Shown here in pieces: positions 33,434-36,493 of a DNA stretch of 64,000 nucleotides. The translations under genes and the position numbers were made by a program. Origin of the DNA: Pseudomonadota bacterium (GTDB lineage Bacteria; Pseudomonadota; Alphaproteobacteria; Rickettsiales; SXRF01); contig JBBTBX010000001.1 in assembly GCA_038043465.1 (NCBI GenBank), positions 30,686 to 94,685 of the forward strand, read 5' to 3'. The notes under the pieces are model-generated. The model was not told the origin of the DNA and searched no databases. It was given only the letters and a program-made list of their open reading frames with translations. The first letter of the stretch is position 1, and the number at the start of each line of letters is the position of its first letter.

Positions 33434-36400
33434 ATGAGTTTATATGGTGCGTTATATTCTGGTGTATCTGGTCTTAAAGGTCAGAGTAACAAGATTGGTA
33501 TCATTTCCGACAATATTTCCAACGTGAACACGGTTGGTTATAAAGGAAACCGTGGCGGGTTTGAAAGTCTCGTGACTTCTTCTGCCAGCGAATCACAATT
33601 CTCACCTGGCGGTGTTATCGGCGCGAACCAACAGCTAGTGAACAAGCAAGGGCTGTTGCAATCTACCGATTCGTCAACTGACATTGCGGTTTCCGGCGAT
33701 GGTTTCTTTGTGGTAAACCAGCAATCTGACGGGGCAGGGCAGGTATATTACACCCGCGCCGGTTCGTTCACACAGGATGCGACTGGTAACTTCCGTAATG
33801 CCGCCGGATTTTTCCTACAGGCATGGCCACTGGATCGTGAAGGACGCTTGCCGGGGGAAACCGGAAATTTAAATACTAACTCCAGCGCGAACCTGACCAG
33901 CCTTACTACGGTCAACGTGACTAACCTCACCGGTGTTGCTGCTGCTACTTCGACAGTGTCAATCGGTGCTAACCTGAACTCGGCACAGACGGCATATCCT
34001 GGGGCTTCCGGCACTGCTAAACCAGATCCATTCCATACACAGAATAATGGAATTGCTGCGAAGGATATTTTGATTCCTGGTGGCGTGAACAGCCTTACCA
34101 GAGGTGATCGTATTACAGTTTCTACCGGTCAGGGACTTAGTTACACTTACCGTTACAGCGGTTTTACTTTCGGACGTGATGTTACTAATGCCGCCTCGGT
34201 TGGTGATAATGATCGGGCGGTTATTTCATCGCCGAATACTATAACTTCGGCTGCAGTGGCTATGGCAAATAACCCGGTTACTACCGGCGCGGCGGCTAGT
34301 ACTACCGTAACCATTACCAGTACGGCGCATGGTCTTACCACTGGGGATGCAGTAACTCTCGCTGGTCTTGCTACAACTGATGGCATTCCGGCTGGTGAAT
34401 TAAATGCTACCCATATTATTACGGTAACTGGTGCTAATACATTTACTATAACTACTACTACCGGTGCAACTGCTGGTGGTGTTACCGGTGGTGGTGCTGC
34501 TGGATTTAAAACTAATTTACCATTTAAAACTACCAATGCCAGTGCCGTGGTTACAGTAAGGCAGGTTGGGCACGGATTGGTTAATAATGAAGTGGTAACT
34601 TTGAGCGGTAACACCGGAGCTGTTGGCGGTATTCCGGCAGGTGACCTGAACGGTTCGTTTCTAGTCACGTACATTGATGATGACCATTATAGCATTACGG
34701 CAGCATCCACCGCTACCTCGACTGCCGGTGGCGGAGCTGGAACTGTGGTTGCCACCACCAGATTGTTTGGTGGCGCGATTATGGACGCGAATAATGCTAC
34801 AACTCGTTTCCTCGCTGATACTGGAACAAGTTCATTCAGCACATCGGCTCTTAAATTCACTATTACAACTACGGCAACAGGTACTGTGAATTTTAGCTAT
34901 ACTTCAGCGTCACCAAATGCACAGCTTGGACAGTTCAATACACTGAATAATCTTGCTGATGCCATAAATGCGGTAACAGGTCTTTCTGCCCGTGTCTCTG
35001 GTGGCAGGCTTTATGTTGGGGCGACCGATGCCAATGCCGCCATTACTTTTGCCAATGGCTCAAGTGTTGGTACTGCTGGTCCTCCGGTGCAGTGGGGTAT
35101 TGACTGGATAAGAGAACTTGGTTTATCTAATCTTGGTACTGGCTCTGATCGTTTTGCTTCTCTGGAAGGACTTGCGAATCTAGTCAATAATTCTTCTGGT
35201 TTGACCGCGACTATTGAGAGCGCGTTGTCATCAGCCAGCGTCAAAATCAACGTTAATAACCCGCTTGATACGATTACGTTCTCAGATTTTCCGGTGTTAC
35301 CTAACGTTACCCTTGGTGCTACTCCGTTTACTACAACGGCAGGCAGCGGAGTTGTAACCGTCACTTTACCGGCTGCTCCATCGCCATCATACGTTACCGG
35401 TGATGTGGTTGATATGGGAACTCTTGCCGGTGGTCCTTATGACGGAATTGCTGCTGCGAATCTTTCCGGACTGTTTGAGATTACTGTAGTGAATGCTACG
35501 ACCTTTACCATTGTTGCTAAGAATAATGCGGAAGCAACTGCTGGTGCAACAACTGGTCCTGCTGGTATTTCCATGGTGCAACCACAGAACTACGGAAGTC
35601 TTGTGGCAGAACTTGGTCTGGTTGACTCATTAAACGGTACTGCCTATTCAGTTGCCGGACCGCAGACGACAGGAGCAATTGGACCGGCTTATGACCCAGG
35701 TGATGCTGCCAAAAATATTGCTGGTGGTGCTATCACCGCACAATTCAGTCGCCCGATACGAGTCTATGACTCACTGGGAACGGGGCATGATTTGAGTATG
35801 AGTTTTATCAAAACTGATATTAATACCTGGGCTGTGGAAGTTTATGCTGCCAATGCAGGTGAGGTGACTTCGCCACTACCTAGCGGTCAGATTGTTACGG
35901 GCGCTATTACCTTCAATGGTGACGGTAGTTTGCAGAGTGTTGACAGTGCACTTATTAATCCGGTTGATATAACCTGGACCAATGGTTCGGTGTCGAGCAG
36001 TATTACTTTTAATTGGGGAACTTCCGGTTCACCGTTTGGCACTCCCAACGCTTCTTCAATCGGTAAGACCGATGGGCTTAGTCAGTTTAATAGTGCTTAT
36101 CGTGTGAATTTTGTGAATCAGAACGGTGCGCCAGTGGGTGACTTGACCAGCGTGGCTATTACCGAAGAAGGTTTTGTGGTTGCCAGTTACAGCAACGGGC
36201 AGACGCAGAATCTGTTTAAAATTCCGCTTGCTGATTTTGCTAACCCTAACCAACTCCAGACTTCATCGGGTAACGTGTTTTTACAATCCGCGCAATCAGG
36301 TGAGGTTAATTTGCGGCAATCGGGAAGCAGTGGTGTTGGTAAGATTGCTTCATCATCGCTTGAACAATCCAACGTGGAACTCGCGGATCAGTTGACTGAT

Positions 36401-36493
36401 ATGATTGTCGCGCAACGCGCATATCAGGCTAATACCAAGGTGATTTCAACAACCGATCAATTACTTAGTCAGTTGAATGATATATTAAGGTAG
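33434..36493 (+). CDS. flgE: Flagellar hook protein FlgE, ~1019 aa
   Basis: MSLYGALYSGVSGLKGQSNKIGIISDNISNVNTVGYK N-terminus and LEQSNVELADQLTDMIVAQRAYQANTKVISTTDQLL C-terminus. Start at ATG 33434, after AAGGGGAGAAG. Confidence 0.9.
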   Translation: MSLYGALYSGVSGLKGQSNKIGIISDNISNVNTVGYKGNRGGFESLVTSSASESQFSPGGVIGANQQLVNKQGLLQSTDSSTDIAVSGDGFFVVNQQSDGAGQVYYTRAGSFTQDATGNFRNAAGFFLQAWPLDREGRLPGETGNLNTNSSANLTSLTTVNVTNLTGVAAATSTVSIGANLNSAQTAYPGASGTAKPDPFHTQNNGIAAKDILIPGGVNSLTRGDRITVSTGQGLSYTYRYSGFTFGRDVTNAASVGDNDRAVISSPNTITSAAVAMANNPVTTGAAASTTVTITSTAHGLTTGDAVTLAGLATTDGIPAGELNATHIITVTGANTFTITTTTGATAGGVTGGGAAGFKTNLPFKTTNASAVVTVRQVGHGLVNNEVVTLSGNTGAVGGIPAGDLNGSFLVTYIDDDHYSITAASTATSTAGGGAGTVVATTRLFGGAIMDANNATTRFLADTGTSSFSTSALKFTITTTATGTVNFSYTSASPNAQLGQFNTLNNLADAINAVTGLSARVSGGRLYVGATDANAAITFANGSSVGTAGPPVQWGIDWIRELGLSNLGTGSDRFASLEGLANLVNNSSGLTATIESALSSASVKINVNNPLDTITFSDFPVLPNVTLGATPFTTTAGSGVVTVTLPAAPSPSYVTGDVVDMGTLAGGPYDGIAAANLSGLFEITVVNATTFTIVAKNNAEATAGATTGPAGISMVQPQNYGSLVAELGLVDSLNGTAYSVAGPQTTGAIGPAYDPGDAAKNIAGGAITAQFSRPIRVYDSLGTGHDLSMSFIKTDINTWAVEVYAANAGEVTSPLPSGQIVTGAITFNGDGSLQSVDSALINPVDITWTNGSVSSSITFNWGTSGSPFGTPNASSIGKTDGLSQFNSAYRVNFVNQNGAPVGDLTSVAITEEGFVVASYSNGQTQNLFKIPLADFANPNQLQTSSGNVFLQSAQSGEVNLRQSGSSGVGKIASSSLEQSNVELADQLTDMIVAQRAYQANTKVISTTDQLLSQLNDILR

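Follow-up and report, generated by a model that had tools for sequence, protein, structure and literature searches.

What fills the extra length of a flagellar hook protein of 1019 aa, and why does part of that material recur in the flagellin encoded a few genes away? The hook gene in question, flgE (33434–36493, + strand), lies within a 64,000-nucleotide stretch of contig JBBTBX010000001.1 (positions 30,686 to 94,685 of the forward strand; GenBank assembly GCA_038043465.1), hereafter the window, with all coordinates counted from its first letter. The DNA comes from a member of the Pseudomonadota that is placed by GTDB in the rickettsial lineage SXRF01, and the accompanying flagellin gene (24121–27603, +) encodes a protein of 1160 aa. 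A preliminary description of this stretch had noted three copies of one module in FlgE and a fourth in the flagellin, and both ORFs (open reading frames) and all four segments lie where it put them, apart from a trivial shift of 1–2 residues between the peptides it quoted and their positions. We found that the module belongs to a group of small beta-barrels best known from phage proteins, that the hook carries it as part of a large insertion common to an entire clade, and that the flagellin copy is old and diverged.

The barrel module in the hook protein and the flagellin

The start of FlgE at the ATG at 33434 is backed by relatives of 1015–1019 aa. The protein has the rod/hook helix (Flg_bb_rod, PF00460, aa 7–37), D1 (FlgE/F/G D1, PF22692, aa 85–145), D2 (FlgE_D2, PF07559, aa 768–898) and C-terminal FlgEFG helix (Flg_bbr_C, PF06429, aa 973–1016) of a hook protein, all four with Pfam matches over cut-off; it is matched by NCBIfam FlgE models, scores 266 bits against TIGR03506 (cut-off 70), and its gene stands in a hook-assembly context, 3' of fliK and flgD. 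The additional length is accounted for by an insertion of ~575 aa inside hook domain D2 (aa ~190–767; 34001–35734, +). We place the insertion there because Pfam picks up FlgE_D2 again at aa 768 (profile position 19) and because aa 768–1014 align to residues 606–846 of Campylobacter jejuni FlgE (5jxl) and to Salmonella FlgE from residue 183.

The three module copies within this insertion, each ~62 aa long with profile-defined boundaries, were scored against a hook-module profile built from 287 copies out of 120 related hooks (185 after removal of redundancy) and including no flagellin sequence. Copy 1 (aa 286–346; 34289–34471, +) scores 71.6 bits, copy 2 (aa 366–428; 34529–34717, +) 88.2 bits, and copy 3 (aa 633–699; 35330–35530, +), in which the first loop is longer, 61.0 bits. 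BLASTP among the three gave E-values of 2.6e-8, 6e-5 and 6.5e-5, the two values of ~6e-5 being those of copy 3 against copies 1 and 2. On whole FlgE, Pfam reports E1_FCCH (PF16190) at aa 292–344 (E 1.5e-8; 35.0 bits against a cut-off of 29.5), via copy 1 alone. Scanned in isolation against the same family, copy 1 reached 26.5 bits (E 7e-6) and copy 3 a weak 12.2 bits (E 0.2), and copy 2 and the flagellin copy had no match. Copy 1 also matched End_beta_barrel (PF12195; E 3.7e-4, 20.8 bits), under the cut-off of 35, and precomputed PF12195 matches exist on some related hooks (P0050, P0076 and P0083).

Structure prediction and profile searches led to the same group of proteins. From the module alignment, AlphaFold2 predicts copy 2 as a small all-beta domain (pLDDT 89.3), the best Foldseek matches of which in the PDB are endosialidase beta-barrels, namely those of phi92 (4hiz; TM 0.74, rmsd 2.0 Å, 31% identity) and K1F (3ju4; TM 0.71, 26% identity), followed by the FCCH domains of UBA6 and UBA1 (TM 0.55–0.57) and N-terminal barrels of ATPases. 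Compared with predicted viral structures (BFVD), this model retrieved phage tail fibers, tailspikes, endosialidases and giant-virus proteins at TM 0.7–0.86. A sequence search of the PDB with a profile of 61 hook copies returned the P22 coat I-domain (E 6e-4), UBA1 FCCH (2lzj; 1.5e-3), phi92 endosialidase (1.7e-3), a phage tail protein (3e-3) and related coat proteins; BurrH, which headed that search, was discarded as an artefact made up of summed ~17-residue alignments to a repeat protein, with no full-length match. In alignment, hook copies and eukaryotic UBA1 have in common the motif HG-hydrophobic-x-x-GD-x-V ... LNG, and because HG-hydrophobic-x-x-GD ... LNG is present even in UBA1 FCCH, it is probably fold-determining. 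Together, profile matches and models show the module to be a member of the E1_FCCH/endosialidase beta-barrel group, with a predicted six-stranded barrel of ~62 aa. The preliminary description had proposed a likeness to E1 FCCH and to barrels of phage tail and decoration proteins; that likeness is borne out by the Pfam match over cut-off, the structural neighbors and a set of carriers, described below, made up mostly of phage virion, tail, tail-fiber and decoration proteins.

When the insertion was modeled as a unit (aa 190–770), AlphaFold predicted a compact structure (pTM 0.71, pLDDT 80.3) comprising the three barrels, N-terminal beta-strands and a helix-strand region at aa 470–620. Foldseek with this model again recovers the endosialidase, FCCH, I-domain and tail-tube group, and none of the hook D3/D4 structures (5jxl and 5az4 chains) is among its best 50 matches. 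The insertion holds a second internal duplication (34925–35287, +), that of an alpha/beta unit at aa 498–541 (34925–35056) and aa 571–618 (35144–35287), the halves of which ('FNTLNNLADAINAVTGLSARV...ITFAN' and 'FASLEGLANLVNNSSGLTATI...ITFSD') align in hhalign with a probability of 91.6% and an E-value of 8.3e-7; the unit has no Pfam family match. The first half resembles a Flagellin_IN motif by eye, a candidate assignment that we rejected given the lack of a Pfam match and hhalign probabilities of at most 13% against every flagellin region.

The flagellin, with Flagellin_N (PF00669, aa 5–141), Flagellin_C (PF00700, aa 1077–1159) and two Flagellin_IN matches, is a giant flagellin by the definition of >1000 aa (PMC6248924). 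Its module copy (aa 270–330; 24928–25110, +) is diverged and sits near the start of an outer region of ~920 aa. One could argue that this segment is not homologous to the hook copies and that the likeness is one of Thr/Ala/Gly/Val-rich beta-strand composition: HMMER with its default composition correction finds no match to the hook profile at E≤10, Pfam reports no E1_FCCH in the window's flagellin or its orthologs, and BLASTP against the hook copies yields E-values of just 0.003–0.02. The HMMER result is explained by the composition (null2) correction, with which switched off the segment scores 22.3 bits over profile positions 2–64, that is, the full module. As Thr, Ala and Gly make up ~35–40% of both FlgE and the flagellin, this score was checked against composition. 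It was reached by none of 1000 local flagellin shuffles and by 2 of 5000 segment shuffles; the next best profile score outside FlgE and the flagellin copy, among 334 six-frame ORFs of the window, was 6.6 bits; and ~85 natural giant flagellins of similar composition and without the module scored at most 11.6 bits, whereas orthologs scored 15–66 bits at the same position. These orthologs form a graded series that runs from plainly hook-like copies ('VVTITSTAHGLSTGDVITLG...', P0144) to the window's diverged form.

Family-level comparisons localize the signal further. The flagellin-segment family aligned with the hook-module family over 64 columns at a hhalign probability of 98.5% (E 2.5e-15). As a positional control, successive slices of an alignment of 29 unselected flagellin orthologs were compared in the same way; the signal was confined to those starting at aa 241–301 (peak E 6.5e-12), with probabilities of at most 6.5% elsewhere, and hhalign of the whole FlgE family against the whole flagellin family produced exactly three local alignments, which correspond to the three hook copies and all fall onto flagellin aa 251–366. 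Given the shuffles, the same-composition flagellins and this positional restriction, we regard a merely compositional likeness as highly improbable and hold it very probable that the four segments are one homologous module of the FCCH/endosialidase type; the homology proposed in the preliminary description is thus borne out under profile methods. Scanned with the module profile, neither the window nor any of 19 related loci showed a copy outside flgE and the flagellin, FlgK and FlgL lying outside the window and not being covered.

Distribution, history and selection

Among 1.84 billion proteins, the module profile (E≤1e-3 unless stated) matched 6884 representatives, 1270 of them at E≤1e-10, with non-flagellar carriers of up to 6564 aa and up to 27 matched stretches. 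The best 143 of the 6884 matches comprised 8 hooks, 1 flagellin and 134 other proteins. Among these 143, the 63 carriers of at most 1000 aa were scanned for families: Pfam assigned 36 to E1_FCCH, 19 to End_beta_barrel and 5 to hooks, and PHROGs placed 27 in a virion structural protein family and others in tail, major tail, tail fiber, tail spike and head decoration families. Judged by these annotations, the module is common outside flagella and occurs there mostly in phage virion proteins. In siphophages, the FCCH domain of the tail tube is turned toward its exterior (PMC13576161).

Flagellins with several barrel copies also occur elsewhere: P0351 (1094 aa), an unrelated flagellin, has 8 matched stretches (Pfam E1_FCCH, E 7e-19), and P0203 (1409 aa) has three copies of 76, 62 and 26 bits that Pfam missed.

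The relatives of the window's flagellar genes are all from uncultured metagenome-assembled genomes (MAGs) labeled Rickettsiales, Alphaproteobacteria or Pseudomonadota. Every one of the 120 related hooks (~800–1353 aa) carries the module, in 1–8 copies, and the three-copy hook architecture is kept in relatives down to ~45% insertion identity; among 120 related flagellins, the module was found in 33. Of the 19 genome loci examined, 14 have a hook ORF and a flagellin-like ORF on the same contig. At five of these (L001, L003, L006, L008 and L015), the hook carries three or four copies and the flagellin one, and at the other nine the hook carries copies and the flagellin none. Among these relatives, the flagellin copy is limited to the window's subclade. 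The suggestion in the preliminary description that hook and filament carry the same surface unit is, as regards a coupled functional feature, weakened by these counts, in which the hook copies are universal and the pairing with a flagellin copy is not. The exact FlgE sequence recurs on 8 contigs of samples named 'Hain_H41', from 0.1 and 0.2 µm filter fractions (including L020–L022). We take this name to denote a groundwater well of the Hainich observatory, and on the basis of the record names only, a groundwater origin of the contigs that carry this FlgE is suggested.

As to how the flagellin acquired its copy, the best-preserved flagellin copies score 60–61 bits against the hook copy-1 class and 28–44 bits against the other two classes, and their best matches are hook copies, by a modest margin over 484 non-flagellar copies that had been picked with a hook-derived profile. 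Between the module copies of the window, blastn found no nucleotide similarity beyond a 17-nt match of copies 1 and 2. The preliminary description had asked whether hook and flagellin copies exchanged recently; with no DNA similarity remaining, recent exchange or gene conversion can be rejected, and the arrival of the module in the flagellin would lie far back. The flagellin copy is probably derived from the hook, a direction that we favor because hook copies are universal, flagellin copies are limited to one subclade and their scores are highest against the copy-1 class. In the simplest history, a mobile surface-decoration module, found mainly in phage virion proteins, would have entered the hook of an early member of what is now a large, uncultured clade of alphaproteobacteria and multiplied in that protein to 1–8 copies; later, and only once, it would have reached the flagellin, in a single subclade, most likely by duplication of a hook module of the copy-1 type. 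E1_FCCH is precomputed by Pfam on most related hooks; because the flagellin copy in this clade is unseen by Pfam, the link between hook and flagellin is invisible in current databases.

We separately estimated selection from dN/dS against four relatives, with dS saturated at larger distances. Values were 0.02–0.06 for the hook core, 0.06–0.20 for the hook modules and 0.07–0.10 for the rest of the insertion; selection clearly maintains the hook modules. The flagellin module, with just 63 codons, gave 0.13–0.51; this copy is both much more diverged and under weaker constraint than the hook modules. Compared with the closest relative, L003 (JBEBHV010000015.1), dS is 0.02–0.07 in the N- and C-terminal cores and 0.3–0.9 in the modules and other outer regions, in flgE and fliC both, which suggests that the surface-exposed parts have undergone mosaic recombination or been exchanged for other alleles. 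Mosaic patterns of this kind are known for H-antigen flagellins.

Possible roles of the barrels on hook and filament

In all hooks and filaments solved so far, the parts of FlgE and of flagellin in which the barrels lie are on the outside, and because D2, like the outer region of the flagellin, is directed away from the axial channel, the barrels are expected to project outward here as well. In that position they may build an extra outer layer round the hook and, more sparsely, round the filament, a layer that, like D3/D4 of Campylobacter and the outer domains of other flagellins, could add subunit-subunit contacts, thicken and brace the universal joint (the hook) and, to a lesser degree, the propeller (the filament). 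We favor a structural role because the insertion occupies the same D2 site as D3/D4 of Campylobacter, its model is compact, the hook modules are under purifying selection, and the fold has structural uses in phage capsids and tail tubes. In C. jejuni, D3/D4 add contacts between subunits, a robust hook depends on them, and their deletion nearly abolishes motility (PMC5097172). That the primary role of the barrels is structural is, in our estimate, a tentative proposition that falls slightly short of an even balance; the explanation as a whole we would place about at that balance, a judgment that reflects the mechanism and not the identity of the module.

Several points weigh against this account. 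Barrel-mediated contacts between subunits are conjectural. Ligand binding, more than bracing, is what the nearest solved relative suggests, the endosialidase beta-barrel being a site of polysialic-acid binding (PMC12632334). A domain fixed in a precise lattice would not usually vary from 1 to 8 copies among relatives, and a mechanical role shared by the filament is doubtful because the flagellin copy makes up ~63 aa of an outer region of ~920 aa and is weakly constrained. The proposed history is likewise less than firm: passage from hook to flagellin is favored over an independent phage-to-flagellin transfer by small score margins only.

The main rival to the structural role is glycan binding. 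If the barrels were lectin-like, ~120 × 3 of them on the hook and thousands on the filament would make the flagellum an organelle that adheres to glycans of hosts, prey or particles. The best structural matches, endosialidase beta-barrels, are suggestive here, as polysialic acid binds to that barrel, located beside the catalytic propeller, at a site with an effect on host discrimination (PMC12632334). Phage tail fibers and tailspikes, which are receptor-binding proteins, are numerous among the other carriers, and a variable copy number would suit binding through avidity. The lineage is also labeled Rickettsiales, an order known for host association, in public MAG records. However, the conserved residues are those common with UBA1 FCCH and look fold-determining rather than like a conserved binding site; the same fold has a purely structural role both in the coat I-domain of P22 and where it decorates tail tubes (PMC13576161); and the record names assign the contigs to groundwater metagenomes, with no host evident. 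On this evidence adhesion seems unlikely, though still a serious contender. A more sweeping proposal would have hook and filament coated by one phage-derived barrel, captured from phage virion proteins and then transferred within the flagellar gene cluster from the hook to the flagellin, as a continuous outer layer or as a multivalent glycan-binding surface over the full length of the external flagellum, which would double as the attachment organelle of an uncultured, Rickettsiales-like groundwater bacterium; in this full form we consider it rather improbable.

The outer modules could instead form a variable and replaceable surface that shields the flagellum from flagellotropic phages, from grazers or from recognition by a host, or that serves as a decoy, and in which the presence of a module would matter more than its sequence. 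The mosaic dS relative to L003, reminiscent of H antigens, fits such a role, as do the fast change in copy number among relatives and the relaxed dN/dS of the flagellin module, which reaches up to 0.5; yet the dN/dS of the hook modules is low, with no sign of diversifying selection, and the three-copy hook architecture is conserved among relatives, so that a variable surface appears decidedly unlikely. Least probable among the proposed roles, indeed very improbable, is that the modules are a common target of post-translational modification, whether for glycosylation or for methylation of lysines, with the neighboring FliB-like enzyme as an example. It is true that a gene for a FliB-type flagellin lysine-N-methylase adjoins the flagellin gene on its 5' side, that Ser and Thr together account for ~23–25% of both FlgE and the flagellin, and that a glycosyltransferase/epimerase fusion gene is present at 49459–51285. 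The module cores, however, are free of lysine, for which reason a common lysine-methylation target, one form of the common modification target raised in the preliminary description, is unlikely: the nearest hook lysines, at aa 359, 365 and 696, fall in linkers or module ends, and the flagellin, with 26 lysines overall, has none between aa 157 and 417. Nothing ties the glycosyltransferase to the flagellum.

Gene neighborhood and relation to known systems

The flagellar cluster of the window runs in the order fliB-like, fliC, fliD, fliS, fliK, flgD, flgE. Pfam identifies fliD (28210–30024, +), fliS (30055–30534, +), fliK (30702–32537, +) and flgD (32594–33280, +), all without the module, and the placement of fliK-flgD-flgE downstream of fliC-fliD-fliS is repeated at related loci. 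The fliB-like ORF (22773–23975, +), immediately 5' of the flagellin gene, scores 138.6 bits against NCBIfam NF038110 (cut-off 85) and has no Pfam match. Immediately 3' of flgE lies a gene for a 112-aa DUF2671 protein (36814–37152, +), followed by a BolA-like gene, a layout found on other contigs with this FlgE. At 5–15 kb 3' of flgE, the window encodes a GGDEF-EAL protein (41588–42991, +), a MotA/ExbB-family channel protein (46768–47574, +) and the glycosyltransferase-epimerase fusion (49459–51285, +), for all of which a link to the flagellar modules is not established. Farther from the cluster, the NF005291 model for a bifunctional acyl-ACP-phospholipid O-acyltransferase/transporter is split over two ORFs, 15251–17386 (−; model positions 421–1131) and 18498–19796 (−; positions 4–421), which lie ~1.1 kb apart and could be a split gene, a gene with an intervening element or plainly two genes. 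The ORF at 10253–11257 (−) has a weak match to an IS1-family transposase (61 bits, under the cut-off of 100).

Among known systems, the nearest parallel to the hook insertion is D3/D4 of epsilonproteobacterial FlgE (C. jejuni, 5jxl; PMC5097172): both hooks are oversized, with a large D2 insertion and extra domains outside the hook, and the C-terminal ends of the insertions are equivalent, as aa 768 of the window's FlgE corresponds to residue 606, just past the D3/D4 boundary at Gln603. The published D3/D4 deletion joins Ala235 to Gln603 (PMC5097172). In content, however, the two are unrelated. The sequence match to 5jxl covers the core only, the window's FlgE scores 193.6 bits against TIGR02489 (epsilonproteobacterial-type FlgE), under the cut-off of 412.85, and its insertion consists of repeated FCCH-type barrels and a duplicated alpha/beta unit, with the number of barrels varying from 1 to 8 in relatives. 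It is also longer, as the preliminary description had surmised: 1019 aa, and up to 1353 aa in relatives, compared with 851–864 aa for C. jejuni FlgE (PMC5097172).

Structurally, the module matches the phage endosialidase beta-barrel (PF12195; 4hiz, 3ju4, 1v0e) best, at rmsd 2.0–2.4 Å over ~65 residues, and both are small barrels inserted in a larger host domain; the differences are that the PF12195 score stays under its cut-off and that the barrel described here resides in a flagellar axial protein without an enzyme domain. E1_FCCH domains on siphophage tail tubes (PMC13576161) decorate the exterior of a helical or stacked tubular polymer, as the barrels would on hook and filament. From eukaryotic FCCH, the module differs in showing only moderate structural similarity (TM ~0.55) and no link to ubiquitin activation, and copies 2 and 3 and the flagellin copy score under the Pfam thresholds. 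The flagellin itself resembles giant flagellins and flagellins with large outer domains (PMC6248924, PMC8931119, PMC11532411) in exceeding 1000 aa and in its long beta-rich outer region. Flagellin_IN (PF07196), which matches the window's flagellin and FliD, is a precedent for a small module common to two axial proteins; here, by contrast, the module is common to hook and flagellin and is a phage-type barrel.

Oversized hooks, giant flagellins and FCCH/endosialidase barrels were thus each known separately. We found no description of a hook insertion of repeated phage-type barrels, of the size of the clade that has it, or of the same barrel in flagellin. The terms FlgE, phage and endosialidase are absent from a survey of flagellin outer-domain folds (PMC11532411), and nothing specific came up in literature searches on giant Rickettsiales hooks or on E1_FCCH in connection with flagella; no paper was found that names E1_FCCH together with flagella, in agreement with the impression in the preliminary description that a module shared by hook and filament had not been reported.

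These findings bear on how flagellar surfaces evolve. Extra outer hook domains have been known from essentially one model, the D3/D4 domains of Campylobacter and Helicobacter, to which the FlgE insertion adds another, independent one at the same position in D2, and hooks of this repeated-barrel type (800–1350 aa, 1–8 copies) are widespread in a large uncultured alphaproteobacterial clade. One small domain is reused across phage tails, tailspikes and capsids and in two flagellar axial proteins, which is relevant to the evolution of surface decoration of helical polymers in general. At 62 aa and expressible alone, this domain offers a defined target for the question of whether such decoration is mechanical or adhesive.

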